In this document: positions 10,915 through 63,682 of the stretch, piece after piece
Position numbering within the stretch: position 1 is the stretch's first letter
Layout of the letters: every line of letters begins with the position of its first letter
NCBI RefSeq assembly: GCF_964204645.1
Contig: NC_134028.1
Span: 15,259,653 to 15,323,652, forward strand
Source of the DNA: Tubulanus polymorphus
Taxonomy: Eukaryota > Animalia > Nemertea
Direction of reading: 5' to 3'
Length of the DNA: 64,000 bases
Translations under genes and position numbers: made by a program
The notes under the pieces: model-generated
Told to the model about the DNA's origin: nothing
What the model saw: only the letters and a program-made list of their open reading frames with translations
Databases searched by the model: none

Positions 10915-12099
10915 GTAAGATATTGACAATTACCATGATACAACGTCTATGCTACCATTTACCTAATAAATTTTTTCTGACAGGCAATATCTTAGGTGAG
11001 GTTTCCTCTTGAGGTGAGGTATTCGGACACAAACTGAAGGTGCATTCTTCTCAAAATAGCCGTTTTCTTGATTATGCGAAACAGAATCATAGGCTGTGAT
11101 GAGGATTCCATCGCTGAGATTTCATCTATTAATTATTTTAATGTACATTATCAATCCAACTGAAAAATTTGTAGTCTTGAAACCCTGTTGTTCCCACAGG
11201 GTTTTTGCTAGTAAAATTAGATGTCAATATGAAAATATATAAGGAAGTTTTGCCAAAATAATTTATTATCGGACTTCTCCAAAATGGTGTATTAATGTAC
11301 CACTCGTGAAAGACTACAACGATAGGCCCCTTGTTTTGGGATTGGACCCATTAGTTTATATGAAGAATAATTAAGCTTACAAAACACCACAGAGCATGTG
11401 TCATCTCCTCGCATGGTCATTGAGGTGACCCAGTTTTTGTTGTCGCCACCAGAGGAAGTGGAGTGTTCACTATATGTACTTTGTCTATTTATATTGGTAC
11501 CTATGCATATTTTGTAATCACAATCAATTGCACATTAGTAGCTAATGACATTTTTAGTTTCGCTGTGACGGAAGGTTTAGTGGGTGGCCTACTTAGGCCT
11601 ACGTGACTGACCTTGCTTGAGCGTTCGTTGCTGGCGCACCGCTTCAAATGTTATAACTGATTGCTAATGACATACAACAAATAAACCTTTAAAGAAAGGT
11701 ACCTAGTGTCTTATATTCTACTGACTAATTCTGGATTGATTCACCGCATAGTTTTTTCATAGTGAGCATCTTAGTAGCCCTATGTGAATCAATTTAAATG
11801 ATTGATAGGCGCGGGTGCGGTTGTATCAGCTGTTGAAGACGTTCGATGTAAACAATAATATTAACCACATGCGTGATACAAACAGAGACATCAAACTGAG
11901 AAGCACTGAATTTCTGAATTACATGTGCTGGTTTTTCAAAAGTATAATCTTAATTGGCTTCTATTGCATAGACCTAAGCCAGGCCCTCTGGAACTGAATT
12001 GAATTTGACACAGTAATTCGCCTGGAATTTGCAATGAATCTTTTTGAAAATAAGCTTGAAGATTGGTTGTGAGGAGATGTCCACCCCTATCGTAAAAGA

Positions 12100-24480: not shown

Positions 24481-24590
24481 CGGTGTTGTCATATCGCGGA
24501 ATCGCGGAATTTACAAAAAACAGAATTTCTTCATTTTCACTATATATAGTAACCGCGTTTTATAGCACCCTGAGATTTCCGCATCACAAG

Positions 24591-24680
24591 AGTAATTAGA
24601 AGATGGCGTTTTCAGATCAGAGTACGAGAGTACGAGACACCACTCATCACCACAAGTAATTTTTTTTCCTAATAAATGGG
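24591..24680 (+). repeat. Polinton left terminal inverted repeat
   Basis: agtaattagaagatggcg...cctaataaatggg is the exact reverse complement of 41665-41754. Confidence 0.97.
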
Positions 24681-25002
24681 AGATAGAAAAGCATTCTTAG
24701 CAACAATAAATAACAGAATAAAACCAGCAAAAAAACAATTTGAAATAAAAAAGTTAGTTGATGTTACAAAAGAAATTGAACATAAAATATTGAAATTAGA
24801 AAAGATAAAAACTAAATATGGAGAGAAAGTATCAGCTAATTTAAGCTACTGTAATGTTAGTACATCGCGAGAATTTAAAGTGTTTTTACCCGATAAATGG
24901 GTTTCATTGAGTACGGAGGAATTGAAAGATTTAGTAGGATTTAAAATAATATATCATGGGAAAAATGAAGACGGTCATCATGATTTAGAAATTGTTGATT
25001 AA
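24676..25002 (+). CDS. Polinton small hypothetical protein (108 aa), possibly OB-fold-like
   Basis: Intact ORF starting inside the TIR at TAAATG. Beta-rich pattern KIKTKYGEKVSANL...FKVFLP...IIYHG. Confidence 0.7.
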   Translation: MGDRKAFLATINNRIKPAKKQFEIKKLVDVTKEIEHKILKLEKIKTKYGEKVSANLSYCNVSTSREFKVFLPDKWVSLSTEELKDLVGFKIIYHGKNEDGHHDLEIVD

Positions 25003-25374
25003 ATAAGAAATAAAAATAATGAATATCTAGAATCCAAAATGACCTTAGTCGTTTTATAAACAACTACAATCATACAGTACATCTGTTACATATTATTATA
25101 AGAGAGTGCTTCATTTGAATATTGATCAATCAAACAGGTGTTGCACAACGTTGTTGTTATAATAAGCCCGTAGTACATACAACACACACAAACCAGTTAG
25201 CTGGTATTGAATTACTGCGTTTTCATTAGTTGCTGAAAACGAGGTTTATTTAAATTAGCTCGGCCGTGACGACAGGAGGATAGTCATCATTCTCTCGTGA
25301 TTAAAAGGAATATTTCAATGTTTTTACGGTAAGTTTTAGCAAAATTGCCCTATCCTCGACCTACAGAGTTTTCA

Positions 25375-25559
25375 GGGGATAAGCATCCCATTATTGAAAG
25401 GCGCCACGGGACGCTTATCCCCCGTCATTTCTACTTACACCCCCGGAGACCCACGTCAACCGGGATCTCCTTCAATGATTGGTAGAAATCACATTATATT
25501 AAAGGCGCCTAATGTAATTTCTACCAATCTCGAAATTCGAAACCGAAGGAGAAACCCGG
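25375..25559. ncRNA. Candidate structured non-coding RNA or DNA element of the Polinton
   Basis: 15-bp stem 25375-25389/25408-25422, 20-bp stem 25477-25496/25510-25529 and enclosing stem 25460-25473/25545-25559. Both loops contain AAAGGCGCC. Confidence 0.5.
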
Positions 25560-25974
25560 AGAGTGGACGAAGGTGCATTTTCAAAATGCCTCTGCTGGCC
25601 AGAGCTACTCCAGTGGTTGAATGAATTGCCTTATATACTTAGCTAAAACACCTAAGTAAATGTTGTTGGTGCTAAAAAAATATGTGAAATTTGAAATTAT
25701 AAATTATTCCGAATGAAAAGAATGTAAGAATGAAAACTGATAAGTGAATTATGTATTTTTAACTTAATTATGATATAATTTTTAATCAAATTAGTAATCA
25801 ATTACTATGTTAATTGATTAACAAATTCAAATATTCAAATAAAAACAAAATAAATTAATAAAAATAATGAATATCTAGAATCCGAAATGACTTATCTGGA
25901 CAATTTAATTGCTCCGCATAGATAGACAAAAGTAGTGAGATATTCAATTATTTTTTTGCTTTTTTTCTAAAATA

Positions 25975-26343
25975 TTAATCCATTTTTTTTATTATCAATT
26001 TTGGAATTTCAGAAGTATTTTCATTTTTGATAGCAGTTGTTTCAGAATTACTAATATCATGAATTTTATTTGATTTCTTATACCAATTACACCCAATCAA
26101 AATGAATACAATTACAAATCCAACTGTAAAATATAAATATTTATCAAATATTCTATTATCAGAAGGAGTAGAAATAACAATATTTTCACCATTTTTATTA
26201 ACATTTTTATTACTTATTTTTTCTTTTACAGCTTTTTTATATTCTTGTGATTTAATTCCTAATTGTCGAGACCATTCAATTTGTTTCTGAGTTCTCGGTT
26301 TTTTCTTCACAGTTAATTCCTTCACTTCTTTCACCTCGCTCAT
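25975..26343 (-). CDS. Polinton single-pass membrane protein (122 aa)
   Basis: TAAATG start, basic N-terminus, hydrophobic YLYFTVGFVIVFILIGCNWY. Homolog at 63308-63676. Confidence 0.8.
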   Translation of the reverse strand: MSEVKEVKELTVKKKPRTQKQIEWSRQLGIKSQEYKKAVKEKISNKNVNKNGENIVISTPSDNRIFDKYLYFTVGFVIVFILIGCNWYKKSNKIHDISNSETTAIKNENTSEIPKLIIKKMD

Positions 26344-26881
26344 TTATTATAGAAATATTTTTACTTTCAATATTTGAAAATGTTATAACCCCAGTTGATA
26401 ATAATGTCATAAATCCACCTAATTGAAATGATAAATATCCAATCCATTTATTTAATTCAGTCATAACTAAATAGTCATTTTTTAAATCGGAATATAATCT
26501 ATTTTCATTTTCAATTGGTAGTATATAATTACATAATTTACTATAACCTTTTACTACATTTTCTGATATCGCGTCATTAATTCTAGCTGTTCTCGCGGCT
26601 TCATAAATCTTAAATAATCTAATAATTTCATCTGATTTCATTGTATCTAATTCATTATAAGTTAAATTTTTACCGACAAAATTTTTACATTTTCCAGATG
26701 CTATTAATATTTCTAATTGATGTTTACAGAAAAGATAATATTCATAATTATTATTTGTTGTAACATTATTTAAAGCACCATCATCTGGAGTTAATTTTGT
26801 TTCTGTTATTCCTAAATCATCTAAAGTTTTTTCAATTGAAACATCACCATTTTTAGATTTTATTTTCTTTTCACCTCCCAT
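26276..26881 (-). CDS. Polinton conserved hypothetical protein (201 aa)
   Basis: TAAATG start. Clear homolog at 62710-63315 sharing IEKTLDDLGI, YEYYL.CKH and LYSDLKNDYLVMTEL. Confidence 0.85.
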   Translation of the reverse strand: MGGEKKIKSKNGDVSIEKTLDDLGITETKLTPDDGALNNVTTNNNYEYYLFCKHQLEILIASGKCKNFVGKNLTYNELDTMKSDEIIRLFKIYEAARTARINDAISENVVKGYSKLCNYILPIENENRLYSDLKNDYLVMTELNKWIGYLSFQLGGFMTLLSTGVITFSNIESKNISIINERGERSEGINCEEKTENSETN

Positions 26882-26912
26882 TTATATAACAAAAAAATTA
26901 ATTGTGTGATGT

Positions 26913-27132
26913 TGCAACTAGAATTTAACTAGAATTCAACTAGATTAACAAGCTAGTTGAAATATTGTTAAATCTAGTTGATTTTTGTTTCAACTACTAA
27001 CAACTAGAATTCAACTATAATGTAACTATAATTAAAATAGATTAACAAGCTAGTTAAAATATTGTTAAATCTATTTGATTTTTGTTACAACTACCAATAA
27101 CTAGAATTCAACTAGATTAACAAACTAATTGA
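26913..27132. repeat. Intergenic AACTAG/CTAGTT-rich degenerate repeat
   Basis: About two copies of a ~110-bp unit (agattaacaagctagtt.aaatattgttaaatcta.ttgatttttgtt) plus many caactagaatt motifs. Confidence 0.75.
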
Positions 27133-27150
27133 ATTTAAATAAATTCATAT

Positions 27151-27741
27151 TTAAATGGGTGTTGTAATAAATAGTAATTTTGATCTTTTAATATTTTTCA
27201 ACTCATCCATATATTCATTATGTAAATCATGTGGAATAATATCATTTTCCTCAAGTGCATTTTTCATCGATTTTCTATCTTTATTGTAGAATAAAACTAG
27301 AAATCTAATGTTTTCTCTAAAGTCTTTAACAATTGAATTATATTTTTGATTTAAAACCCAAGTTGTTATCCCAAAATGTCTCCCAGAGAAAGCTAAATAG
27401 CATAATTCACTTTCTCTAACTTTTGAATCATGTAAATTTGCACAATCATCTATGATAAATAATGTATTTGATCCTTTATAAATATCAATTGCTATTTTTA
27501 TACAATTATCTAAATTTTCTTTTACTGTTTTAGGATCTAATATAATAAATTTATTATTTCTAGTAATATTTCTATCATAAGTTTGATTAAATTCATATGT
27601 TGGACAAAATAATACTATATTATCAAAATAGTTTTTGTAAATAGTTTCTAATAAATTTAATATAAAATAAGTTTTTCCACAATTTGTTACACCAGAAATT
27701 AACATATTATGAGGCTCAAATATGAATAATTCCTTATTCAT
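27151..27741 (-). CDS. A32/FtsK-like genome packaging ATPase
   Basis: Walker A ISGVTNCGKT, Walker B LFIIDDC, and A32-type GRHFGITTWVLNQKY...REN. Confidence 0.92.
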   Translation of the reverse strand: MNKELFIFEPHNMLISGVTNCGKTYFILNLLETIYKNYFDNIVLFCPTYEFNQTYDRNITRNNKFIILDPKTVKENLDNCIKIAIDIYKGSNTLFIIDDCANLHDSKVRESELCYLAFSGRHFGITTWVLNQKYNSIVKDFRENIRFLVLFYNKDRKSMKNALEENDIIPHDLHNEYMDELKNIKRSKLLFITTPI

Positions 27742-28869
27742 TTATATATTTTTAATTTTACTTGATAATATCCATTCATTAAATTTATCTGGCCATCCAA
27801 CCCATTTTACTAAAGAATATTTTTTTCTTTTAATAGTTTTTGTTTTTAATACTTTTTCAATTTTATATTCTTGTTCTAGATTTTCAGTAGTTAAACTTAA
27901 TTCTTCTTCGTAAAAGTAACCATCAACTTCTTCACCATCTAAATCTTCTAATTTATAGACATATGGTTTTGTTGTTATTACCTTTTTTATTTTATATATT
28001 TCCCTAGTAAAATTTCGATCGTATCCTTTGTCAAATATCTTTTTATACTTAGATATTCTAACATTTTGACCAACTTTAAATTTAGGTTCACCAAAATCAT
28101 CTACAAGAAATGCTCCATATAAATTATTCCAAACAATTTCAGCATTTTCAGGTTTTCTAGCATCAATAGGTTTCATTCCAATAGAAGAATGATAAGAATT
28201 ATTATATCCTTCTATCAATTTTGGTAAAACATCAATCCATTTAAAAGTATTATTTGCTGTAAAATATTTCCACATTCTTGTTCTTAATGTTCTATTAAAT
28301 CGTTCAACAACTGCTGCTTTTTTATCTGATTTTGTTGAAAAATATTTAATATTATGATTATCTAAGAGTTCATGAACAAGTGAATTATCAAATTCTTTTC
28401 CATCATCAAATTGTATTTTTTCTGGTTTTAGTTTATCATCCGAAAGAAATTTTCTTAAAACATTTGATGTTTGTACAGCATCTTTTCTATAAAGTGGGAA
28501 GCTCCATACATAACGACTAAAAATATCAATTATATTCAATAACCACCAATAATCATCATTATCTTTCTTAACATTTTTCATATCAATTAAATCTCCTTGC
28601 CACTGTTGATCTACATAACTTACCATAGTTTTACGAGTTTTATATTTTCTAACAATTTTTTTATGTGTTGTATATGTTGGTTGTTCTAACATAAATTCAT
28701 TTATATCTTTATATTTAACTAAATTTTGTGGGATTATCTTATCTAATTTATCTTGTTTTACTTTACGCCATATATTTTTAGTAGAAGAATAAGCAACCGA
28801 ACTCTCAGGGTTGTAATATAAATTTCTTAAATATTGTTCTTTAGTATTAGGAGTTTTTTTACCACTCAT
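27742..28869 (-). CDS. Retroviral-like (RVE) integrase with C-terminal chromodomain
   Basis: DDE triad in WQGDLIDM / QFDDGKEF / VVERFNRTL. C-terminal YKIEKVL...LVKWVGWPDKFNEWI chromodomain. Confidence 0.95.
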   Translation of the reverse strand: MSGKKTPNTKEQYLRNLYYNPESSVAYSSTKNIWRKVKQDKLDKIIPQNLVKYKDINEFMLEQPTYTTHKKIVRKYKTRKTMVSYVDQQWQGDLIDMKNVKKDNDDYWWLLNIIDIFSRYVWSFPLYRKDAVQTSNVLRKFLSDDKLKPEKIQFDDGKEFDNSLVHELLDNHNIKYFSTKSDKKAAVVERFNRTLRTRMWKYFTANNTFKWIDVLPKLIEGYNNSYHSSIGMKPIDARKPENAEIVWNNLYGAFLVDDFGEPKFKVGQNVRISKYKKIFDKGYDRNFTREIYKIKKVITTKPYVYKLEDLDGEEVDGYFYEEELSLTTENLEQEYKIEKVLKTKTIKRKKYSLVKWVGWPDKFNEWILSSKIKNI

Positions 28870-28899
28870 TTATATATCCTTAATTTTAACTTTATATTT

Positions 28900-30147
28900 C
28901 TAATATTGAATACTATCTAATTGTGAATTTACAATATTTAATTGTGCGTCAGATATAATATAAATGTGCATTTTAAAATTTTTGATTCCTTTATTCTTTT
29001 TCATGAATAATTGTATTCCATCTTTAGTGTTCTGTAGTTTTTTTCCAGAACCATGTAATGAATTATCTTCTGTTGTTCTAAAATCTAACCATAATGCATA
29101 TTTATTACCGGTATAATAATCAATTTGATTAATATTACAATTTTCAAATGATTTTACTTTTTCATTCATAAAATGTTTTCTAATTTCTGGCCATTGATCA
29201 ATCATTCTCATTCCTTGACAAAATATTTTATTCGCTATTCCTTCAATTGTTATTTCTACTTTTGTTATTTCAGGATTATAATAATTATCAACATTTATTG
29301 CACCATTAGAATATGTTGCAATAGTAAAAAATATTAATATACCTTTAATAGATCTTCTTGGGAAAATAATATTCTCATTAATTATTTCATCATTTGCATT
29401 GATAGTTACAGTTTTAAATTTATCAATATAATCATATAATAATGAAAATCCTTGATTGTATTGAGTTTGAATTGTGCTAGCAATATTTTCATTAGTTACT
29501 GTGTTATATTCTAAACATATATTCGATAATTTATAACCCATATCTTTAACAACGCTAGATAATACAATTTAATTTACAGGAGCAAATGTTATCTCAAATA
29601 TAATATCTTCTTGAATTGCGTATTTATATAAAGGTGCATTATTATTTATCAATTCAAAGTCTAATGGAATTTTATATTTGCTTCCATAAATCTTTTTAAT
29701 CAAATTATCTACACCATTATTTACTACTGCGTTATTGGCTTCAGATCTTAATTTATTTTGGTTTTCTGATTGAATTCCTTGAAATATCATATTATTTCTA
29801 TTTTCTTTAGTTAACCATAAATCTTTATAATGTGAAAATAAATTATAATCATCTAATGAGAAAACTGTTTCTGGACCAATCTTTATTGTTAACTTTTTAA
29901 TCAAATATCTTCCAACATTATCAACAACATAATTATTATTATTACCGATTACTTTTATATCGGCTGATAAATAAATACTGTTTGGAACATAAAAAGTATT
30001 TTGTGTTAATTGAGGGATTCTAACGTATAAAGTTTCATCGGGATTAATATTTGAAGGGTTATGAGTAATTATATGATGTGATCTTTCTGCTTTAATAGCA
30101 TTAGATATTCTATGATTCTTCGAAGGACTTATATAACTCCCACTCAT
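28900..30147 (-). pseudogene. Major capsid protein (double jelly-roll) with one in-frame stop
   Basis: The 192-aa and 213-aa ORFs are in the same frame, separated by TAA (29569-29571) and 9 sense codons. About 415 aa, beta-rich, with the size and position expected for a Polinton MCP. Confidence 0.75.
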
Positions 30148-30187
30148 TTATTTAACAAAAAAATTAATTATTTATTTTTTATCATGT

Positions 30188-31617
30188 TTACTTGATATTT
30201 TTTGATATCATATTCACTAACCCAAAAATAATAGCACTTACAACTGTAATTAAAAATAAAATAATATGTTCAGCAGCAAAGTTAATAATGTTTCAGATTT
30301 CAATATAAAACCAACAATTGAAGCAATAATTCCTGGCAATGCTGCAGCAGATTTTTTAGATAGTTCCCATAAATATTTTGCTAATTTTTTTAAAAAACCA
30401 TCCTTAACTTTATCTTGTATAGAATTATTTCCTGGAGGTTTATCTGGTTTATTTGGAGTAGATTTCAAAGCATTTGATATTGCTAAACCAATTGTTGTAA
30501 ATAACATAGTTACAGCTGTTAGAATTGAAAGAATTGTTATTCCTTCTAATTTAAATAATAACTTCATCCTGTCTTTTAATGATATTTCAGAATTTGGTTT
30601 AATCAACAAATCTTTAAAAATAACTTTTAATCTATTAATATTATAATCATATGATTTTAATAATAATTTAATTTCTTCTTTCTGTACTTCTAAATTATCT
30701 TTTAAATTACTAATTTCTTTTTCTAAACGTAATTCTTTTTGCCTATATTCTATTTCATCAATTACTTGATGATCTAAATCAGACTTTAATTGTTCTATTT
30801 CTTTATTTTTATCAGTTAATTCTTTTTCCAAATACATAATTTTTTGATCTCTTATACTTTTATTATGTGCAATTTTATCAGATGCAAGTCTTATACTAAT
30901 AATTTCTCTAATTGCTTTATCAGAAAATATATCTAAATCTTCTAATTCTTGATCTGTTGCATCAAATAATCCATTCGGTAAAAGTTTTTCAATTGGAACT
31001 TTATTTGATCTAAGTTTACTATTTTTGGAAGTTATATTCTGTTCAGAAGTTGTTTCTGTTTCTGATTTCTTTTTGATTATTTCAAATAATTCATTAATTC
31101 TTTGTTTAAATACATCTATATTATCATCTATTTCTTTTTGTGTAACATCAGTTATTTCATTACTATTACTTATTATTTTAATTCTATCTGGTTTTAATTT
31201 TTCTAAAGTTGATTCTGATAATATTTTATTTTTATTATTTTTATAAGTGATATCAATATAATAATCACCTTTCAAACGATAATAACATTTACCATTATCT
31301 AAAAATTTCAATTGATCTGCTAAAAGTCCAACGTCTTCATCATTTATGTTAAAATTAGATTTTTCAATTAAATCTTCTAATTTAGGTATTTTGTTTAAAT
31401 TATCTAAATCTTGTTTTACTAAATCTGGGTCTAAATTTTCAGGATTTAATTGTGATTCAGCATTTTTAATATAATCAGGCATATTCAAATTATTATTATA
31501 TTCTGGCTCATTACCATCATTAAAACTTGTTTCATCAAAATCAGGTGGTTGTTCATCAGTTATGTTAGGTTCATCAAAAGGATCCATTCCAATATCTTCT
31601 CCACCTTCTACATCCAT
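30188..31617 (-). CDS. Coiled-coil membrane protein (~475 aa, probable frameshift near 30290)
   Basis: Acidic N-terminus, long heptad region, hydrophobic GITILSILTAVTMLFTTIGLAI and AAALPGIIASIVGFIL. An alternative frame continues NIINFAAEHIILFLITVVSAIIFGLV to a stop at 30188. Confidence 0.7.
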
Positions 31618-31633
31618 TTATATAATAAAAAAA

Positions 31634-32962
31634 TTAAAATTTAAAATATAATATTCCTCCTATAACAATTCCTATACAAGTTATAGCTAATTTAGTATTT
31701 TCATGGAATTTATTATCATCATTTAGTTTAATTACATCATGTTGAATTTTATCGGTTTTAATATCACCATGTGGGTGCCGTACGGCATCATTTTCTGATG
31801 TATTGTAATCTTTTATTTTAGAATCATTATTTAATTTAATATTCTTAATTTTAGTTTCAGTTGATTGAATGTGTTTTTTATTTTTTTCACCTTCCATTAA
31901 TTTTGGAGCAGTAATAAACTTTTTATTTATATCATTTAATCCAAATGAATTATTTATTGTTGCAGTTTTAATTAGATTATTATAACCAATTATACTACCC
32001 ATTTTTAATATTAAATCATTAGAAATAATTAATAGATTAGGGCCTATACAATAATTAAGTCTTACATGAGATTTATCTAAATAATTTTGATATCTTATAA
32101 TGTTTTCTGGAATCGATCTATTTTTATCATTATGAATTGAATCTTCAAATAAAACTTTAAACTGTTTCTGCGCATCGAATGAAGTGTTATCATTTCCAAT
32201 TATTTGGGATCTTGTTTCAACTTGAGCGCCTAAAATACATATCAAATAAATTCTAATAGATTGATTTATTCTTTGTATACCTGATTTTGTAAAACCTTCA
32301 CCATTTTCTAAAATGAAATTAACCCAACCATTATTATTATCAATTTTATAATTATGATAAGCTCCAATTCTATGCATATAATCAATTCTTTTTATTTCAT
32401 ACTGTTCACCAACACCTTGCAATTTACCATGCGCTCTGAAATCGGAATTAATATTTATATTAAATTCATTACATATTTTATAAAACTTGGATATATTAAT
32501 ATTATTATCCAATTCTTTAAAATATTTAGACCCGGGTAAAGGACATTCTAATTCATTTAATATTATTCTGATTTGAAAATATGTGTGAAATCTAAATATT
32601 GTGTGAATTAATTTTAAATCAGAATACTTCAAATTTTTATCTAAGTTATTTAAATGATCATTCCAACTTATTTCACATCCTGTTGTTGCACAATAAACAG
32701 CAAAATTTAATTGATTCTGCCAATATTTCATATTAGATTTTACTTTATACATATGATATTCATCTCGAGTAAAAGTAACTTCATATGTATTAAATATATT
32801 TTCCATTTTAGAAATAAAAAACTGTGATTCAGTAACATAAATTTCTAAATTAGTTAATGAATTTAAAACTATATTTTTATATGTAATATTTTTCTTAAAA
32901 TCTATTGCCGGAATATTATATTTAATTGATTTATTATATTGGAAAGCTTTTGGAAACCCCAT
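31634..32962 (-). CDS. Polinton hypothetical protein with C-terminal membrane anchor (442 aa)
   Basis: Long ORF with TAAATG start and C-terminal LAITCIGIVIGGILYFKF. Confidence 0.8.
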   Translation of the reverse strand: MGFPKAFQYNKSIKYNIPAIDFKKNITYKNIVLNSLTNLEIYVTESQFFISKMENIFNTYEVTFTRDEYHMYKVKSNMKYWQNQLNFAVYCATTGCEISWNDHLNNLDKNLKYSDLKLIHTIFRFHTYFQIRIILNELECPLPGSKYFKELDNNINISKFYKICNEFNININSDFRAHGKLQGVGEQYEIKRIDYMHRIGAYHNYKIDNNNGWVNFILENGEGFTKSGIQRINQSIRIYLICILGAQVETRSQIIGNDNTSFDAQKQFKVLFEDSIHNDKNRSIPENIIRYQNYLDKSHVRLNYCIGPNLLIISNDLILKMGSIIGYNNLIKTATINNSFGLNDINKKFITAPKLMEGEKNKKHIQSTETKIKNIKLNNDSKIKDYNTSENDAVRHPHGDIKTDKIQHDVIKLNDDNKFHENTKLAITCIGIVIGGILYFKF

Positions 32963-32978
32963 TTATATAACTAAAAAA

Positions 32979-33413
32979 TTAATAATTTATTAATTCTTTT
33001 AATAATTTATCTTGTTCTTCAACTGTTATATGGCCATTTAAACTTATTATATAATCTAGTGTGTTCTTTAATTTATTAATTTCTTTTATATTAGTTTTAA
33101 TTTTTTCTTTATTACTTTTTATATTTAATTTTGAACTTATACCGGTTAAAACACTTGAACTTAATCCTAATACACCAATTGATATAGCTAAAGGTGTTAA
33201 TGGGCTGAATATTGCTAAAAATGTTATTACAGAACTAATCGTAACCGAACCACTTATAATCAAATAATATATAATTTTACTTTTTAAATATTTTTTCTTT
33301 TTTATCTTTAAGTCACTTTCAAATTCTAATATTTGTTTTTCTAAATATATTTTTAATTTAGTTTTATTTATATCATGAGGAATAATATCAATACTATCAA
33401 CTTTATCTTCCAT
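32979..33413 (-). CDS. Two-TM hairpin membrane protein (144 aa)
   Basis: TAAATG start. Central hydrophobic stretch flanked by basic coiled-coil segments. Confidence 0.78.
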   Translation of the reverse strand: MEDKVDSIDIIPHDINKTKLKIYLEKQILEFESDLKIKKKKYLKSKIIYYLIISGSVTISSVITFLAIFSPLTPLAISIGVLGLSSSVLTGISSKLNIKSNKEKIKTNIKEINKLKNTLDYIISLNGHITVEEQDKLLKELINY

Positions 33414-33432
33414 TTATTTAGAATAAAAATTA

Positions 33433-33855
33433 CTAATTAGTAAACTTATAAGCAACAAATATAACAATAACTGTTCCACCTAAAATCCATATTATTTCAT
33501 ATTTCTGTTGTTCTTTACTTGGGGTATAATAATCTGATAATTTAGGTTTGTATAGATGTAATTTTTCTTTATTTGTTACTGCGTTATATAAACTCATTGC
33601 ATCATCAACTGATTGAAAATCTCTATGTGAAATCTTCTGATCATATAATTCTTTATTGATGTAATCCATATAGTTTTGCCTCTTTTCTCTATATTCTTCT
33701 GCAGCTTTATTGTATTTCTCTAACGCTAAGTTATGTCTTCTTTGTTCTCCTAATGAACTATTTTTATCAATATGTTTAAATAAATAACCACCACCAGTAA
33801 ATGCTAAAGCGTTAACAATTGCTGATCCTATAATAGTTATAATTGCAGAAGCCAT
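33433..33855 (-). CDS. Membrane-associated protein (140 aa)
   Basis: TAAATG start, hydrophobic N-terminus MASAIITIIGSAIVNALAFTGG and C-terminal IIWILGGTVIVIFVAY. Confidence 0.8.
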   Translation of the reverse strand: MASAIITIIGSAIVNALAFTGGGYLFKHIDKNSSLGEQRRHNLALEKYNKAAEEYREKRQNYMDYINKELYDQKISHRDFQSVDDAMSLYNAVTNKEKLHLYKPKLSDYYTPSKEQQKYEIIWILGGTVIVIFVAYKFTN

Positions 33856-33880
33856 TTATTTAGCAAAAAAAATTATGCAT

Positions 33881-34096
33881 TTATATGGGAGGAATATATT
33901 TTTGTTTTTCTAAATAATCAATAGTTAAATTAGATAAAGTAACTGCTAATGTTAATTTTAGAATATCATTGATATCAAATCTATCAACATTTCCCATTTT
34001 GAATACTTTTTTTAATACCATTGAATAACCAACAGTTCCAACTGATAGTAATGCTCCATTATATAATCCAGTTATTATCCACTTATTATCACTCAT
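33881..34096 (-). CDS. Small hydrophobic protein (71 aa)
   Basis: TAAATG start. A related copy at 58354-58500 conserves the frame. Confidence 0.78.
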   Translation of the reverse strand: MSDNKWIITGLYNGALLSVGTVGYSMVLKKVFKMGNVDRFDINDILKLTLAVTLSNLTIDYLEKQKYIPPI

Positions 34097-34456
34097 TTAT
34101 TTATCAAAAAAATTACTATCATCAAAATATTTAGTTATCTTAGTGATTATTAATTCAACATTTATTTTATTACTAGTTTTATGATTATCATATATTTTGG
34201 ATAATATGTTTTTAATATCATCGATGATAAAATCTTCATCTAATTCATAAAATCTTAAAGATTCTCTAATTAAATTAGTAATCTTTTCTACATTTAAAGT
34301 TTCTTTATCAATTGTTGTTTCATACTCAAATGTTGTTTCATAAGAAAATGCAATATTTTTGATATGTGTAATTACATCATTAATATTAAATTTCATTTCT
34401 TTCTCACGTTTAAAATCAAACCCAAAACATATACTCGGTCCAACAGTTATATTCAT
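34097..34456 (-). CDS. Polinton hypothetical protein (119 aa)
   Basis: TAAATG start; its stop abuts the next ATG. Confidence 0.7.
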   Translation of the reverse strand: MNITVGPSICFGFDFKREKEMKFNINDVITHIKNIAFSYETTFEYETTIDKETLNVEKITNLIRESLRFYELDEDFIIDDIKNILSKIYDNHKTSNKINVELIITKITKYFDDSNFFDK

Positions 34457-34472
34457 TTATATAGGTGAAAAA

Positions 34473-35225
34473 TTACTCTTTACATCTTATAACTAATTCA
34501 TAAATTACAGGAAAGTTATTCAAATCAATTAAGTATCCATTATGATTTCTTATTTCTAATTTAAAATTATTAAATTGAGGAATACAAGGTTTGAAATCAC
34601 ATTCAGCTAAATTATAATTTATTTGCGTTCCAAATTCTTTAACATTCTTCAATGGTAAAATGTTTAGTAAACCAGAATTACAAGTTATATCTTTAGTTGC
34701 TTCGAATGTTTTTGTAGGATCAATTAAATTGCAATAAATATAAAAATGTGTAAAAGGCATTAAGTTTGATTTACCTTCTGCGTATGCTGTAACAATATCT
34801 GGGTTAATTCCTAACAGTTTACCTAAAGGTTTTCTTACTGTAAATTTAAATTGTTCGTCTAACCTAATCTTTATTTTATTAGAACTAGCACTTTTTAAAA
34901 TTCTAATATTAAATCCAGAATCACTTCCTAATTTAGCTCGAGCTTTTCTATTAATTTCTTGTGCTAATGTATTTAAATTATATAATCCTGGTTTTAAATA
35001 TATAAAAAACCATTTATTCCTTTTTTTATAAAAGATTGAAAAAATTAAATGTTCAAGACTTTTATCCGTTACATTGTAAAAAGAATTACATAAACTTATA
35101 TTTACTAATTTTAAATCAACGCAATTCTTAAATTCTCTATCTAATTGTACTAATAAATTATGAGATTTATAATTTGTAAGTTTTCTAGAATCAACAAATA
35201 TTCTGTATTCTTTTAATTCTACCAT
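34473..35225 (-). CDS. Minor capsid protein (penton, single jelly-roll)
   Basis: Pattern IFVDSR...NSFYNV...PGLYNL..L...IN...LLGI...YIYCNLI...KLEIRNHNGYLIDLN..PVIYELVI, typical of Polinton/NCLDV pentons. Confidence 0.8.
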   Translation of the reverse strand: MVELKEYRIFVDSRKLTNYKSHNLLVQLDREFKNCVDLKLVNISLCNSFYNVTDKSLEHLIFSIFYKKRNKWFFIYLKPGLYNLNTLAQEINRKARAKLGSDSGFNIRILKSASSNKIKIRLDEQFKFTVRKPLGKLLGINPDIVTAYAEGKSNLMPFTHFYIYCNLIDPTKTFEATKDITCNSGLLNILPLKNVKEFGTQINYNLAECDFKPCIPQFNNFKLEIRNHNGYLIDLNNFPVIYELVIRCKE

Positions 35226-35293
35226 TATTTATAACATAAAAAAATTACCGCTCATCACTAAAAATTAATTTTAATAAAATTTTTCCTTAATAA

Positions 35294-36610
35294 ATGGATG
35301 AGACGATAGCATGCGAAATTTGTGGTGAACTTCTAAGAAAAAGTAATATGGCTCGACATATGAAAAAACATGATGAAAATTATAAACCCCCTAAAATAAA
35401 CTGTCCAAATTGTAATAAAACATTCTCTAGAAATTATTTCAAAAAACATTCAGAGAAGTGTAAAAATAATAACTTAATAGTTAATGTTGACAGTAACGAA
35501 AGTAATAATAATTCTGTTGAAGTTGAACCTGAAATTATTTGGAAAAGACCTTTCTTATTCTATGATAAGGATAATATAAAAGATCATTTCTGTGAGCCTT
35601 GTCGAATAAAATATAACCCTGAAAATATAGAAGATTGGGAGAATCATCAATTTCGTAAAGTACATATAGATAAAATTTCTAATAAATTTGAAACTGAATT
35701 CAATGCAAGAAAAAATAATTTATTAGAAAAAATAAAATATGAGAAAACGTTACCAGATAATGAAGAAACAGTTGAAAAGTTAGAAAAACAATATAATGAA
35801 TTAACAAGAAAAACATATTATTGTAAATATTGTAAATTGATTATTACAACAAGTAATTCAAATCTACATAATAGAACAATAAAACATAAAGAAAACGTAA
35901 GAAAATACCAAGAGCTTAATGAAGATCTATTACCAGTAAATTATAAACAAAAATGCCCACAATGTATTTATGCGACCTTAAGGCAAGAAGGTACTGTGTT
36001 ATTTTGTGTTGATTGTGGATGGCAAAGGAATTTATGGGGTGAAGAAAAAACTAGAAATTTTCTTATAGAACCAAAATTAAATTATCTTGATGAAATTTTT
36101 AAAATATTTTCTATAGAAGATCATACACCAGAATATATGCAATGGCTTGAAAAAATGAAAATAATAGAAAATAAAAATGGTGAAATAACTAAAAAAGATA
36201 TTATAAAAACAATTATTCCACCAACATTTAACACAAAACAAAAGAAAATGTATTTATATTTATTATTTAACGATTATTATGAAAAACCTAAATTAACAGA
36301 AGAAGATATGGAAAATATAAAAAAAATATTTAAACAAATATTAATATATCATTTGGAAAATAGAATAACAGATTCAATAAATTATGAATTCTTTTTAAAT
36401 AAGATTGTAAATTATTTAAACCTAGATATTATAATTCCATTTGATGAATTAACAAACAAAAAGAAACAAAGAGTGCGAGATGAAATGTGGAACAAGATAG
36501 AAATTTATTTAAATGAGAAAAATGGAATGGAAGAAGAACCTGAACAATTAAATGAAAATGAAGAAGCTAATAGTGATTTCGAGTATGATGATATTGATTT
36601 TATGTTTTAA
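35294..36610 (+). CDS. Zinc-finger protein with C-terminal VLTF3-like (poxvirus A2 / NCLDV late transcription factor 3) domain
   Basis: Four N-terminal C2H2/C2HC fingers and a CPQC..CVDC ribbon, then PKLTEEDMENIKKIFKQI...SINYEFFLNKIVNYLNLD...LTNKKKQRVRDEMWNKI, matching the VLTF3 C-terminal pattern as I recall it. Confidence 0.72.
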   Translation: MDETIACEICGELLRKSNMARHMKKHDENYKPPKINCPNCNKTFSRNYFKKHSEKCKNNNLIVNVDSNESNNNSVEVEPEIIWKRPFLFYDKDNIKDHFCEPCRIKYNPENIEDWENHQFRKVHIDKISNKFETEFNARKNNLLEKIKYEKTLPDNEETVEKLEKQYNELTRKTYYCKYCKLIITTSNSNLHNRTIKHKENVRKYQELNEDLLPVNYKQKCPQCIYATLRQEGTVLFCVDCGWQRNLWGEEKTRNFLIEPKLNYLDEIFKIFSIEDHTPEYMQWLEKMKIIENKNGEITKKDIIKTIIPPTFNTKQKKMYLYLLFNDYYEKPKLTEEDMENIKKIFKQILIYHLENRITDSINYEFFLNKIVNYLNLDIIIPFDELTNKKKQRVRDEMWNKIEIYLNEKNGMEEEPEQLNENEEANSDFEYDDIDFMF

Positions 36611-39600
36611 TGGCTATAAGGTAATGTTTTTATACCATCATCTGAAATATGCCTTTTATCATCAAATGGATTTAAACTAGTTTTTTCAACTTCATTAATG
36701 TACATCTCATGATCTTCTGATCTTAAACAATTCATTTTGTGTTTCATTACAATTGATTTATATAAACACTTTATATAATCTTGAAATTCTATATGTTTAT
36801 CAACCACATGTTTTGTTATTCCTTTTAACTTTTTAGCTTCATGATCTTTTGTTCTGTAACTATACATTTTACTTCTTATCCCAACAAATTCAATCATTTC
36901 ATCACCCCCTAATTCATCTTTAAATTTACCAGGAATCTTTTTATTATCATTGCTAAACAATTCATGATCTTTGGGGTAATTGCTAAAATCAAAATAATGT
37001 TTTAATGTTTTTAAGTCTTTTGTTATATTATTTGTCTTGATTTTTAGTATGTAGGCGTCAGTATTGACCGCTATTAATGGAAATCCACAGTTAAATGTAC
37101 CATCTTCAGTTGATAAATCATAAACATAATCTGTTGGGTTATATATTTCAAATAAATCCTTAACTTCTTCTGTTAACTCATTTTCTACATGGCTTAAATT
37201 AAAGCAATTTGGTTTAGATTTAATCAATCCAATATTCATATTAAATCCTAATGAAGTGCATAATATATTCAATCCTGATATAGCAACTTTTCCTTTTTGA
37301 GCTAAAGATATTGTTTTGCGGTTTTGGAAACTTTTTGAACCATCTGCTGCATAGAATCCAATGAAGAACCATTTTCTTAAATTATTTTTTGCATTTAATA
37401 CATAATCTGGAACTATCTTTTCTTTTGTTGAAGTATTACTTTTCACTATTGCATGAATATAGAATTCGTTATTATATTTTATAGCAAAATCTTTAGGATT
37501 ATTCACATGTATTCTATAACATTGTGATGATTTCATAACATCTATGATTTTGAATGTTTTATGTGAATAAACTTCTTCACAGAATTTCTTAATTCTTTCT
37601 AATAATTTTTAAGTCTTGATTGCATAAATACCAACAATATTTAGTTCCACTAACATAATTATACACACCTGCTGAACCATCACCCATGAAAAATCCTTTG
37701 ATAAAATATTCTTTTTCTTCCAATGTTTCGGGTTCTATATTATAAATATTATCAATTATTTCATCAAATGATATATGATTCATTCTTAGGAAAAATCTTT
37801 TATGTAATAATTCATCTCCAATTTTTATATCAGTTGGTTTTATTTCATTACCATTTTGTTTAATCAAACTATGGTCTTCAGTAATATCAACAAATCCTAA
37901 TTTAGTTCTAACTCTATAGATTTTCTTATTCGTTTTATGTCTAATTATATTCTTTAATTTTGTCCATCCATTTCTTGTCCAAACATCCATTAAACCATTT
38001 ATTTGTATTAATTCTTTTTCTCCATATGAAATATAACATTCATTTTGTTTTGGAATTATTTCTGAAATTCTTCTTATCAATATTTTATCATTACATTTTA
38101 ATAATATTGGGGTGTCTGCTGTAACAGAATCAAAGTATAGAATTTCTATATTCTTTTCCCCAAAATGAGGTTGTAATACATTATAATAGAATTCATACAT
38201 TAGTAATTTTGATAATTCTAAAACAGTCGAACCAATAAATATAGGTTTATTGAATTTAATAGACGTTCTTTTTAATTTTACCGCGGTTAAATAATCCTCA
38301 AATCTTTTATTTCCTAAATGTCTAGGACTTGATTGTAGGTGTCTCAATCGTTCAGAATTATTTACTAATTCAATATCATTTCTATTTCTAATATTTTCAC
38401 ATGTTTTACCATAAAAACTATTATTCATTAATTTGAAGAAATCTTTTTCAAAATCTGTTTTTGATATGGTTCTCTGTTGAGTATTGAAATCTATATATTT
38501 TTCTAACCACTTTGATTGATTAAATTCAATATATCTATGTACTTTCTTTAATTTCATTCCTTGTTTTAGATAAAATTTTAACATTCTATAATGAACAATA
38601 TAATTGTATTTATTATTTTGAGTAAGTATTAATTTTTCTGTAAAAACATGATCTTTCGGTTTTATTTTCTTCTGGTATTCACTTAAATAACTATCATCTA
38701 CAGTTAAATGTTCTGGGCAATAAGGTAAGTTTCTTGTTTTAAACTTTATATTTTCAGGATATTCTAAATCAACTACAAAGAAATAACCAATTGGTGCTTC
38801 ATCTTTTAAACTAATAATTGCGCTTTCCCAATCAGTTTTATCACCATTTTCAACTTCTGTTAATATAAAATTTTTATATGGTTGAGGTTGCATCATTGCC
38901 CAACCATATAAATTATTGGCGTCAATATATAATAATTTATATTCATCATTTGCTTTAAAATACCTATCTCCCATAACACCACTAATTCCACCTCTAATTG
39001 ATTTTTCAAATAATAAAACCATATCTGGTTCTTTTAATAAATCTAATTCTACATTTGTATATTTTAAACCACATTGCCAGGTTAAACCAGGACTAGAATA
39101 ACAATAACAAGGATCAACATTAAAATGATTCAAATTAACTTCTCTAAATTTTTCAAATATGTCAGCCAATATCATAACATCTGATTTTAAATATAAATCA
39201 ACTAATTCACCATGATTTTTCATCTTAAAATGGTTCCAAATATTTAATGTTCTATTAAACACTTCATCTTTCACATACTCCTCTTTTAATTGATCATAAA
39301 ATTGATCTTTTAATAATTCTGTTACATTAAAATCATCATGTGTTTTATAAAATGAATAAGGAATTGCGCCTTTATATCTCAATAATTTAAAATCTTGTTC
39401 ATTTGGATAATAATATCGAGTTATAACAAAATCATTATCAACTAAACTTTTTGATAAATTATCTAATGAACTTGCTAGAAATCTATAAGAATCTAAAAAT
39501 CTAATGCAACCAAATTGAAATGAAATATAATTTTCAGATGTTTTAGCTAATAGTTTAAAATCATATTTTCTTACATTTATACCATTCATAGCATTATATT

Positions 39601-41669
39601 CTTCTATTTCTTGATTAATTGCGCCCAATTTTCCCGATAATTGTTTTATAAATAGATGGGTATCATAGCCTGATAAATTATGAAATAATATTGGTACGAA
39701 ATTAACTTTCTTAGCTTGTAAATTGCAATCTTCATGAGCAGCTCCACGATATTTTGAATTCAAATGATCATGATCTCTAACTCTTTTATCAAATGAATAA
39801 AAACGTTTTTCACAATAACAACAATGAGTTGCATAATTAAAATCAATTTCATCTTCTTTTGTCATAACTATTCTTTTATTTTTGTTTAATAATTTTGTAA
39901 AATCACTTTCTAATTCAATCACAACAAAAATCATTAACTACATTTTCACCTCTAAAAGAAATATATTGACTTTCATATAATTCGGGATAATTTGATTTGA
40001 TGTAAATTCCATAAGCAGCAGCTCTTTGATGAACTTTTTTAATTGTATTTATAATTGGTGGGTCTTGTATTGCGTCTTCATTTAATTCATTTCCTTTATC
40101 CATTGATTTTAATAATTGCTTTTTGTTATATATTTCTTTTCTATCTTGATCAGTTAATTCTTTATTCAACGATTCAAAATCCCCATAAATTACAAATGGA
40201 ACAATATTTTTAAATTTATGATTAGTAAATTTCAATTTATAATCTTTTTCTGTTGGCATTATTAATTTACAAAAATCTTTATTATCACATAATTCTTTAT
40301 GTTTTAATAATGTATTCTCAGTTCTAAATTTAGATAAACATTTTCTACATAGATAAATTTTATGGCTGTTAAAATCACTTTCTGTTCTAAAGAATAAATC
40401 AATTTGATTTAACCACATATAATGTTCATTTTCATCTTTTTTGTAATATAACAAATCTATAGCATTTTCATCATCATAATATTCTGTTAAATATAAAGCT
40501 TCCAATGTATAATCTTTAATATTTTCACCTTTTGTCTTTGGTAATTGCATTAATTCGAATACATTTATTTTTAAATTATTAATTTTTTCGATTTTAGGAA
40601 TCATTTTTATAGTTACTGGATATTGATCAATTTTATATAATGTTTCATATTTCCGATAATCTGTTATTCTACAAACATTTTCCTGTGTTGGATGTAAGCA
40701 ACTAATAATTGACCATAGAAAACATTTGTTGTCTTCATTTTGAACATTTATTACTGCTTTTGTTGTAAACGGTAATTTGATATAACTTGATGCTTTCATA
40801 TCTTTTTCTGTTATAAAGTTTGAATCATTTTTAAACATTTTATTACTTTTTGATGTTTTATTTCTTTTTGTATTATAAACATTTAAATCTAAATATATAA
40901 TTTCATTCAATGTTAAGCCAGAACCCTCAAAATATCTTTCTTCAATATGACGTTTAAATTCATTTAATATTTTTTCTAACTTCTCTTTTATTTGTGTTTT
41001 TGAAATTATTTCTTCAGAGTGTGTTTGAATATTATAATTCATTTTTTCTTCTGACTTTATAAAACTTACTTTCCCAGAGATACTAATTTTTGGATATTCA
41101 ACATCTGTTATCAAATCTAGTAATTTTTCTATTATTTCATTAAATTTACTATAATCTTCTATTGTTGTACCTTTAAAGAATCTAAATATAATAGCTGCAG
41201 GACCAATTTTACTATGTAATGTTTCTAAGATTTCAATTGTATCTTTTATTTCTAGTGAATCAATATAATTTCTAACATTTTCCATGTAAGGTTTATTTGA
41301 AATGGATTTAGTTTTTGAAGTTGGTTTTTTTACTTTTTGAGTTTTATCGTCAAAATAATCTTTTCTTAAAACATTATTACTCAAATTTTGGTGGTGTTTT
41401 TGTGATTCGAGATGTCTATTATAATTCCTTTTTACTATAAATTCATTACAAACTTCACATTTTATTTCATCCACATTCATATTTTCTAATCGTTCTTTTC
41501 TTTCATTGGAATTTTCTGGAGTTTCAAAATCTATAACATTTTTTATATGATTTGAAGATTTTTCATGTTTAGATTTATTAGATTTATCGATGTATTTTTT
41601 ACAATATTGACAATAATATTGATTTTTATTGACATTATTGTTTTCTAGTTGGTGTTCATTCTCCCCCAT
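36607..41669 (-). pseudogene. Protein-primed family B DNA polymerase with intein and two frameshifts
   Basis: Exo I YGDFES, Exo II FHNLSGYD, Exo III YLKSDV, Pol A YIDANNLYG, Pol B KLMNNSFYGK, Pol C YFD/TDA, GKFKDE and RSKMY. EndoVII-like CCYC..DHDH..CN insert. Frameshifts at ~39925 and ~37607. Confidence 0.95.
37063..38128 (-). mobile_element. Intein with LAGLIDADG homing endonuclease (~355 aa) in PolB motif C
   Basis: Block A SVTADTPI, block B VDITEDHSL, LAGLIDADG motifs FIKGFFMGDG and FFIGFYAADG, block F YVYDLST, terminal Asn followed by +1 Thr. Removal restores YFDTDA. Confidence 0.92.
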
Positions 41670-41754
41670 TTATTAGGAAAAAAAATTACTTGTGGTGATG
41701 AGTGGTGTCTCGTACTCTCGTACTCTGATCTGAAAACGCCATCTTCTAATTACT
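41665..41754 (-). repeat. Polinton right terminal inverted repeat
   Basis: Exact reverse complement of 24591-24680. Confidence 0.97.
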
Positions 41755-42920
41755 CACAAGCACAGGCTAACTACGTTAAAAATCCTTAAGTCGACGATCA
41801 GGAACCAACGACGAGAAAACGTTCCTAAAACTTCAAACCGTAAATTTCACTTTATTTTCTTCGATATATCGGAGAGACGAGGCTGGACATCCAACCCGCT
41901 CAAAAGCTACAACTCGAATCTTTGATTTCTTTCAACAAATTTTCAACCAGGATACTATTACATAAGACACCAAGGGTGGCAGAGACCAGAAGGCAGTTAT
42001 CGAAACAATACACACTGACTGACACTTCAAGTACATTTCTAAAACAAACAAACAGTCTGACACTCCAAAACTGACTGACACCCTGCCCCCTTAGTAACAT
42101 CAATGAAAATAAGACGATATTTGTAAAATAAGAAATAGAAATCATAAACAAGACATAAAAATGCTCTGTTAATTTAGACTAAATTTAGTTAAATATCTAC
42201 GCTGTGATAGTTTTCCCGTGGGGATACCCACTGCCGGACATGGCACCGGACCGATCGATGCACTGAGTTATGTTCGAATCCCATTATTTGCAGGCTATTT
42301 CATCGGAAATTATGCGATTCCGTTGACTGGCTGCAACCTACAGCAGCAGCCAGAATCAAGTAGGAAGAAGAGATCACCTGGGCGAAGTTCGGTTATCGAA
42401 GTTAGTCGACTTTTTGCGAACTTCAGAACGAATATTATCAGTTGAATTTGAGCACCGTTCGACCTGGCCGTAGTTCGTGGTTCCAAACTTGGGGTCCTAG
42501 GACCAAACAAGTACCGATTTAGTAACAATATGATTTTTATTTGATTCAAATAATCAGCAACAAATATGTAATAGCTGTCATTAAGAAAACCAGCGGCATC
42601 TAAAAAAACGAAACCATTTTATAATCTCTAATATCATTTCATTTCGTAAACTTTCCCAGGTAAACTACTGATTTACCACCGATTTTATTTGATTCGTTCA
42701 GTATAGTACACTGCGATACTGTGCATCACAGATTAAGTTGTTGACTGGCGATATAATGAATTATCACATACTGGTACCCGTTTATGAAAACATCTGTCCG
42801 ATGCCTTGTCCGACAGTAGGTATCCCCACAGGAAAACCCGGTTACGATTTATAGTGAAAATGAAGAAATTCCGTGTTTTTGAAAAATTCCGCGACTCCGT
42901 TCCTCGATATGACAACACTG

Positions 42921-58353: not shown

Positions 58354-58535
58354 ATGGTATTAAAAAAAGTATTTAGAATGGGAAGTATTAATGTTGATAG
58401 ATTTGATATAAATGATATCTTAAAATTAACATTAGCAGTTACTTTTTCTAATTTAACTATTAATTATTTAGAAAAACAAAAATATATTCCTCCTATATAA
58501 ATGCGTAATTTTTTTACTAAATAAATGGCATCTGC
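58354..58535 (+). pseudogene. Isolated Polinton fragment (3' part of the 71-aa gene and start of the 140-aa gene)
   Basis: Encodes MVLKKVFRMGSINVDRFDINDILKLTLAVTFSNLTINYLEKQKYIPPI*, then TAAATG-MAS. Closely matches the reverse complement of ~33845-34021. Confidence 0.9.
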
Positions 58536-63676: not shown

Positions 63677-63682
63677 AATAAG

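Follow-up and report, generated by a model that had tools for sequence, protein, structure and literature searches.

Excerpts of PMC11980589 describe the late promoters of vaccinia virus as carrying TAAAT, in most cases with a G after it, over the start codon, with a conserved T 10 nucleotides (nt) upstream that lies amid other T's, and the intermediate promoters of poxviruses as combining TAAA with an A-rich upstream region. Excerpts of a second account (PMC5294985) give the layout of poxvirus late promoters as a T-containing core, a spacer of 5-7 bp and TAAAT(G/A), that of the late promoter of African swine fever virus (ASFV) as bipartite and AT-rich, with TATTT at -15 to -11 and TATATA at the start site, and the consensus of the TATA box as TATAAAT. 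Virophages and a polinton-like virus carry promoter motifs of their giant virus (excerpts of bioRxiv 10.1101/2022.07.28.501842), and yeast cytoplasmic linear plasmids (pGKL), which have protein-primed polymerases and an evolutionary link to Polintons and poxviruses, use a TAAAN initiator and acquire 5' poly(A) leaders by polymerase slippage (excerpts of PMC6211774). Here we analyse a window of 64,000 nt from the nemertean Tubulanus polymorphus (RefSeq assembly GCF_964204645.1, contig NC_134028.1, positions 15,259,653 to 15,323,652 of the forward strand), which contains a complete Polinton/Maverick insertion of 17.2 kb at 24591-41754, and we describe a short sequence module in this element that is a real signal, anchored on the start codons of 14 of its 15 genes.

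Results

A module at the start codon of nearly every gene

ATAAATG stands at each of the 14 starts at which the initial annotation had placed it, from 24676 to 41669, and in every case the ATG of the motif is the first ATG of the open reading frame (ORF). The fifteenth gene, which encodes a penton-like protein and starts at 35225, carries the variant TAAATAATG, again as annotated. A run of T's lies just upstream of most starts and reaches at least five at 12 of the 15, and the internal ATGs of broken ORFs (29541, 37536 and 39934) are without the motif. When the 15 starts are aligned on their ATG, the module reads A (at -21), G/T, T, A, A, a T-run (-16 to -10), two variable bases, T, W, W, ATAAATG and then G/A at +4; its core anatomy is AGTAA at -21 to -17, the T-run, a variable 6-nt spacer and TAAATG. 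T occupies position -14 in 15/15 starts and position -13 in 14/15, while no position upstream of -21 or downstream of +7 is conserved across the alignment. Six of the 15 modules read TATATAAATG and eight read AATAAATG. An A-rich class is formed by three genes (3/15), those for the integrase, the ATPase and a protein of 122 amino acids (aa), which keep AGTAA, the T's at -14 and -13 and ATAAATG, and are A-rich in between. The modules, with their strand and the gene that each precedes, are as follows.

24655-24678 (+): module with a T8 run and TAAATG, 108-aa gene 24676-25002
26341-26364 (-): module of the A-rich type (AGTAAAAAT..ATAAATG), 122-aa gene 25975-26343; lies within the 3' end of the 201-aa gene
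26879-26902 (-): module, T7, 201-aa gene 26276-26881
27739-27762 (-): module of the A-rich type, A32-like packaging ATPase gene 27151-27741; the TAA of the module is the integrase stop codon
28867-28890 (-): module of the A-rich type, gene for an integrase with rve domain and chromodomain 27742-28869
30145-30168 (-): module, T7, major capsid gene 28900-30147
31615-31638 (-): module, T7, 455-aa gene 30250-31617; TAAT7 begins with the stop codon of the 442-aa gene
32960-32983 (-): module, T6, 442-aa gene 31634-32962
33411-33434 (-): module, T5, 144-aa gene 32979-33413
33853-33876 (-): module, T8, 140-aa gene 33433-33855; the length of the T-run varies among family copies
34094-34117 (-): module, T7, 71-aa gene 33881-34096; lies within the 3' end of the 119-aa gene
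34454-34477 (-): module, T5, 119-aa gene 34097-34456
35223-35246 (-): module, T7, with the variant initiator given above, penton-like gene 34473-35225; the 1.3 kb upstream contain no end of a same-strand gene
35273-35296 (+): module, T5, divergent 438-aa zinc-finger gene 35294-36610
41667-41690 (-): module, T8, protein-primed DNA polymerase B gene (PolB) 36607-41669, in three pieces with two frame breaks and one intein

Since the element is 76% A+T and 13 further copies of ATAAATG lie elsewhere than at gene starts, the pattern might be thought a by-product of AT-richness and of the stop codons that precede ORFs. The counts make this explanation vanishingly improbable: the motif is present at 14/15 true gene starts compared with 27 of the 664 ATGs that the two strands of the element contain (Fisher p = 9e-21), and the information summed over -30 to -1 is 13.9 bits for the 15 starts, above all of 2000 random sets of 15 other ATGs from the element (mean 4.18, standard deviation 0.62, maximum 7.37). 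Of the 12 separate places in the element that show the composite T5+-N3-8-TAAATG, 11 are gene starts; the other, at 24883-24899, opens a frame of just 15 codons. Outside the element, the composite occurs once in 47 kb of host flank and once in a second, fragmentary element to the right. The enrichment also survives control for TAA-ATG stop/start coupling, as the TAA of the motif is the upstream stop codon at only two of the 14 sites (27741 and 34096). Moreover, the motif is kept at 6/7 starts in a relative with a GC content of 38% (L003).

The module belongs to gene starts and contains the start codon

Because many genes follow one another closely, we considered whether the module might serve the gene upstream of it, its T-run acting as a terminator of the poxvirus early T5NT or asfarvirus poly-T kind, or its [A/T]ATAAA as a poly(A) signal. 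AATAAA or TATAAA is contained in 14/14 ATAAATG sites, and TAATTTTTTT starts with the upstream stop codon in three cases, sites further to the two mentioned above at which the TAA of TAATTTTT forms this stop codon. In addition, T5NT is depleted on the sense strand of coding sequence, with 9 occurrences observed against 24.8±5.9 in codon shuffles and 0/500 shuffles as low; A-runs of at least five show no such depletion. The depletion fits a T-run that acts as a signal. However, TAATTTTT is also found where no gene ends upstream. Four modules, those of the two genes that start within the terminal inverted repeats (TIRs; 24676 and 41669) and of the divergent pair (35225/35294), have no same-strand gene upstream at all, and two others lie 105 nt (30147) and 272 nt (26881) past the previous stop codon. 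Conversely, a T-run right after the stop codon is absent at the seven gene ends that lack a close following gene (those of the 108-aa, 122-aa, 438-aa and 455-aa genes and of the PolB, ATPase and major capsid genes), and in sister contigs the T-run is often swapped for an A-run. As the module is present at isolated starts and the T-run is missing from isolated ends, it belongs to gene starts, and we regard a role as terminator or poly(A) signal of the preceding gene as highly unlikely.

The ATG inside the module is the real start codon. Off-frame stop codons have a density of 0.125 per codon; even so, 14 frames begin precisely at the motif. From +18 onwards, the first ATG to follow is in frame in just 4/15 genes, and in two genes the motif ATG is the only one in frame. 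With later ATGs mostly out of frame, the mRNAs must begin at or upstream of the motif ATG. Position -3 is a T in 14/15 starts. Under the Kozak rule, a T there suits scanning ribosomes poorly, and the motif is thus not a translation optimum.

These observations also bear on a different scheme, in which long polycistronic RNAs run inwards from the element ends and the module is an RNA-level processing site or a signal for translation re-initiation. Thirteen of the 15 genes lie on one strand, separated by tiny intergenic spacers of 16-30 nt, and the in-frame TAA before each ATG, together with the stop codon at -19 in three cases, resembles a stop/restart arrangement. Nevertheless, the genes that come first in each direction carry the module too, although nothing lies upstream of them to be processed or terminated; the T at -3 would serve scanning ribosomes poorly, and no splice-acceptor AG is conserved. 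To our knowledge, spliced-leader operons have not been reported in nemerteans. We therefore consider the polycistronic scheme improbable.

Architecture of the element and its host locus

GC content falls to 24% across 24.6-41.8 kb, is about 28% from 60 kb to the end of the window and lies at about 35-39% elsewhere, so that the element, at 24% GC, stands out from a nemertean host of about 37%. Its borders are defined by the following features.

24585-24590: left target-site duplication CACAAG; the identical hexamer is at 41755-41760, and the two directly flank the TIRs
24591-24683 (+): left TIR, starting with AG, 99% complementary to 41662-41754; holds the module and the first codons of the 108-aa gene
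41662-41754 (-): right TIR; holds the module and the first codons of the DNA polymerase gene
41755-41760: right target-site duplication CACAAG, matching the left hexamer

The element has the features by which Polintons/Mavericks are recognised: TIRs of 93 nt each that both start with AG and are 99% complementary and a 6-bp target duplication, CACAAG, on both sides; a protein-primed DNA polymerase B (PF03175, E = 1.9e-19 in Pfam); an rve integrase (PF00665, E = 2.5e-10) with a weak chromodomain match; an A32-like packaging ATPase (Pox_A32, E = 1.6e-13); and jelly-roll capsid genes, identified by weak Pfam matches below the cut-offs (Capsid_N, 0.0024, over 29569-30147, and DUF5901, 0.0004, for the penton-like gene 34473-35225). 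An adenovirus-type maturation protease, also typical of the group, was not among them, as the 18 ORF pieces gave no Pfam protease match. Pfam recognised no genes for an RNA polymerase, a capping enzyme or a late transcription factor among the element proteins, and an RNA polymerase was not detectable in the ESM Atlas either. In the Atlas, the 442-aa and 438-aa proteins had no usable match, or just generic zinc-finger leads under 0.8, and cluster look-ups of Atlas entries returned no names. The 438-aa zinc-finger gene is oriented divergently to the main gene block.

The copy in the window is damaged. An in-frame stop codon at 29569-29571 interrupts the capsid gene (28900-30147), and the polymerase gene is in three pieces with two frame breaks; the possibility that the capsid TAA is decoded under an alternative genetic code was ruled out, because TAA terminates most genes. 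In raw reads labelled as the same species, the depth over the element is 2-8x that of the right flank, and most of the reads that cover it are only 90-99% alike to the window copy, which places this copy in a multi-copy, diverged family. Most reads differ in length beside both polymerase frame breaks, so the breaks look private to the window copy. Two further runs, one from a marine metagenome and the other labelled as another organism, also contain, at low depth, short contigs (185-300 nt, some with only 2-3 differences) that match the element within 25900-42800.

The polymerase gene contains an intein of about 350 codons at about 37066-38125 (-), with weak Intein_splicing and LAGLIDADG matches. 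It interrupts the catalytic YxDTD motif, which the closest relative, L006, reads uninterrupted as ..MYFDTDSYILK.., and one of the two frame breaks falls within it. Between the convergent 108-aa and 122-aa genes (25003-25975) lies a stretch of about 870 bp with a host-like, higher GC content and no ORF of at least 50 aa. The direct repeat of about 30 nt that flanks it suggests that another mobile element inserted here at a later time. The sole long intergenic region, 272 nt at 26882-27150 (-), is upstream of the 201-aa gene and holds two arrays of an 11-nt repeat (AATTCTAGTTG, gene strand) at 26915-26944 and 27001-27041, inside a duplication of about 120 nt; these arrays may be a regulatory or replication element. 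Within the TIR, a 9-nt sequence is duplicated in tandem at 24630-24650 (GAGTACGAGAGTACGAGA). L006 and L007 have a like 9-nt pattern, with other central bases, near their polymerase-side ends (upstream of PolB), which suggests a conserved terminal element.

On the host side, inverted repeats of up to 122 nt (97% complementary) are nested and densely clustered at 23691-24344, about 250 bp left of the insertion site, and resemble miniature inverted-repeat transposable elements. A FoxJ1-type forkhead exon at 10423-10926 (+), about 14 kb from the insertion, is 100% identical to a Tubulanus polymorphus protein listed at NCBI as forkhead box protein J1-A-like.

A second element (58354-64000, +) is a fragmentary, rearranged relative, with a gene order unlike that of the complete copy. 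It holds homologues of the 71-aa, 140-aa and 201-aa genes and of the integrase, with host-like sequence intervening at about 58.6-60.7 kb, and an ORF at 61044-61562 for which no Pfam family was found. Just to its left, an ORF of host-like GC content at 56133-56603 (+) has a weak match to OTU cysteine proteases (E = 0.0011). The motif starts noted there by the initial annotation, at 58521, 60901 and 62706, are all present.

58504-58527 (+): module, T7, homologue of the 140-aa gene
60884-60907 (+): module of the A-rich type, ORF 60905-61078
62689-62712 (+): ATAAATG start, homologue of the 201-aa gene (62710-63315)

A decoy, ATATAAATG, is kept in both elements 26 nt upstream of the start of the 140-aa gene, at 33876-33884 (-) and 58497-58503 (+). 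It arises where an ATG follows the stop codon that ends the 71-aa gene, has no T-run and opens a frame of six codons.

The module in related elements

A search with the polymerase returned 5725 homologues, the best of which is 83% identical and lies on a 16.9-kb ENA contig. The set of relatives used here comprises 78 loci, 75 from a metagenome scan with the polymerase and three from IMG/VR; IMG/VR scans with the ATPase and penton proteins yielded one weak relative and none, respectively. In a quick, preliminary maximum-likelihood tree with support from the SH-like approximate likelihood-ratio test (SH-aLRT), the window element groups with L006-L009 at 100% support, and the PolB of these relatives is 68-73% identical to that of the window (best tblastn segment). 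At 21-23% GC, L006-L009 carry TAAATG at 11/12 starts of ORFs of at least 100 aa. The upstream half of their modules is often an A-run followed by TT (TAATAAAAAAATT-N-ATAAATG); it is mostly an A-run in L007-L009, and PolB alternates between the T-type and the A-type among relatives.

Further out, the motif is present in some lineages and missing from others. L003, with 38% GC, has TAAATG at 6/7 starts, against a background of 3.4% of its ATGs, and L052 has it at 6/11, compared with 0/4 to 0/8 starts in the nearest tree neighbours of these two. About a quarter to a third of starts carry it in the L040/L056/L064/L077 family. Other lineages have shifted forms, namely TATAAAA(A)ATG, a T-run plus AAAAAATG, or TATATATATG, and some have no motif; more distant Polintons show TATAAA(A) at a variable distance of 0-4 nt from the ATG. 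Across the 78 loci as a whole, TAAATG was found at 46/334 starts of ORFs of at least 120 aa versus 616/20994 other ATGs, and ATAAA within 10 nt at 82/334 starts versus 778/20994 other ATGs. Taken together, this enrichment across base compositions indicates that the signal is selected, independent of base composition and patchily distributed. Such a patchy distribution would be expected from promoters that match a partner.

Discussion

A predicted promoter for each gene

In light of its anatomy and of the controls at gene starts and gene ends, the module is best read as a compact per-gene promoter, a prediction from sequence in which about 24 nt include an initiator that overlaps the ATG. We tentatively propose, with a probability of about 0.4, that this promoter is read by transcription machinery of the poxvirus (giant-virus) type and not by TATA-directed host RNA polymerase II (Pol II). 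The proposal draws on the match to poxvirus promoters, the poor fit to Pol II, the lack of a polymerase gene in the element, the low GC content, the tiny spacers, the depletion of T5NT in coding sequence and the precedent set by virophages. Under such a scheme, the T-rich core would be the binding site of a polymerase complex, and transcription would begin in the AAA of TAAATG; as with poxvirus late genes, the mRNAs would have next to no templated leader, and possibly a 5' poly(A) leader. The three A-rich genes (integrase, ATPase and 122-aa) could then form a second, intermediate-like class. Since no polymerase or transcription factor is recognisable in the element and the geometry does not suit host Pol II, the machinery might be supplied by a co-infecting large DNA virus, as it is for virophages.

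Several points weigh against a giant-virus reader. No giant-virus partner emerged among the IMG/VR matches listed for TAATTTTT-N7-ATAAATG; this exact pattern occurs in at least 120 stretches, and the 80 loci listed have a single match each, as by chance. We know of no giant virus from Tubulanus polymorphus, and the virophage-type systems known to us are all found in protists with mimivirus-like helpers, none of them in animals. The chromodomain integrase and the multi-copy germline family fit a nuclear life equally well, and the element looks adapted to life in a chromosome. Furthermore, the switching of PolB between types among relatives implies that the two 'classes' are not fixed per gene, the TATAAA(A) forms of distant Polintons could reflect a Polinton-wide mechanism unrelated to poxviruses, and the upstream core, with about seven T's plus AGTAA, is short compared with the roughly 20 bp of vaccinia.

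Some of the same facts would suit a host reader. The module could be a per-gene promoter for host Pol II of a non-canonical, initiator-only kind, to which the 438-aa zinc-finger protein might contribute, its likeness to poxvirus promoters being convergent. Integration into an animal chromosome, the chromodomain integrase and the multi-copy family suggest residence in the nucleus; no polymerase of its own is detectable in the element (Pfam, ESM Atlas), and the zinc-finger gene is set apart by its divergent orientation. This reading has to contend with the lack of any conserved position at -30 or beyond +7, and with spacers of 16-19 nt, which are too small for a separate poly(A) site and promoter. 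If TATAAATG served as a TATA box, transcription would start inside the ORF, where only 4/15 next ATGs are in frame. Moreover, the metazoan initiator has the consensus YYANWYY, which TAAATG does not fit. On balance, we think recognition by host Pol II rather unlikely.

Two broader ideas go beyond the data more freely, and we regard them as speculative and doubtful. The nemertean family may be a satellite, in the manner of virophages, of a still undiscovered giant virus of marine invertebrates that resembles poxviruses, its genes lying silent in the chromosome until the late machinery of this helper recognises the T-run/TAAATG promoters; alternatively, the TAAAT initiator may be ancestral to Polintons, poxviruses and linear plasmids.

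A search of the openly accessible literature returned no account of a start motif of the TAAATG type in Polintons, Mavericks or adintoviruses, and an animal Polinton with a promoter architecture of the poxvirus-late or virophage-mimicry type appears undescribed in the literature searched. A promoter of poxvirus-late layout at nearly every gene makes testable predictions, namely transcription starts at TAAATG, perhaps poly(A) leaders and perhaps dependence on a polymerase of the giant-virus type. If true, this would extend the virophage lifestyle from protists to animals and point to large DNA viruses of marine invertebrates that are as yet unknown; the evolutionary link proposed between Polintons, poxvirus-like viruses and cytoplasmic linear plasmids would gain a regulatory character. 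Should host Pol II turn out to be the reader, the module would, at about 24 nt, be an animal promoter of unusually small size.

Comparison with known promoters

Eukaryotic core promoters offer a partial likeness, in that TATAAATG fits the TATAAAT consensus as the excerpted account gives it. A TATA box, however, lies 25-30 bp upstream of the start site, whereas the sequence here abuts the start codon. A TATA box with a downstream start site was accordingly rejected, and neither a -30 element nor a downstream promoter element is conserved across the 15 starts. Baculovirus TAAG, present at 3/15 starts, does not fit. With the ASFV late promoter, as described in excerpt, the module shares a bipartite, AT-rich layout, and TATATAAATG appears in 6/15 modules; the invariant core, by contrast, is ATAAATG and not TATATA, and eight modules have AATAAATG.

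Virophages and polinton-like viruses (Sputnik and mavirus with late motifs, PgVV with the early AAAATTGA), so far as the excerpts describe them, resemble the nemertean element as small, Polinton-related, AT-rich elements with tiny spacers and one motif before most genes. They differ in the motif itself, as AAAATTGA, the mimivirus early motif, is found at 0/15 starts and the CroV/mavirus TCTA at 3/15 (about chance), and in their host, which is a protist and not an animal.

The yeast linear plasmids, to whose TAAAT initiators the module had been likened in the initial annotation, provide a parallel that holds in part. The excerpts of PMC6211774 bear out a TAAAN-type initiator, and a protein-primed polymerase is likewise shared; the defining upstream conserved sequence of the plasmids, ATNTGA at 20-40 nt before the ATG, is absent, at 0/15 starts here within the 60 nt searched. 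The plasmids also encode their own RNA polymerase and capping enzyme, neither of which was recognised among the element proteins by Pfam.

The closest correspondence is with poxviruses, although the carrier is a 17-kb Polinton in which no genes for an RNA polymerase, a capping enzyme or a late transcription factor were recognised, and we know of no poxvirus in nemerteans. The initial annotation had pointed to the architecture of poxvirus late promoters, and its interpretation is partly supported: initiator, spacer and T-rich core all match the descriptions, as excerpted. TAAAT is followed by G or A there, and here TAAATG stands at 14/15 starts and TAAATA at the penton gene; the initiator overlaps the start codon, the motif ATG being the first of the ORF in 14/15 genes. 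A T-run at -16 to -10 in 12/15 is set off by a 6-nt spacer (5-7 bp in poxviruses), and the T found 10 nt upstream of TAAAT in vaccinia has its counterpart at -13 in 14/15 modules. Finally, the A-rich upstream half of 3/15 modules resembles the poxvirus intermediate promoters outlined in the same excerpts.

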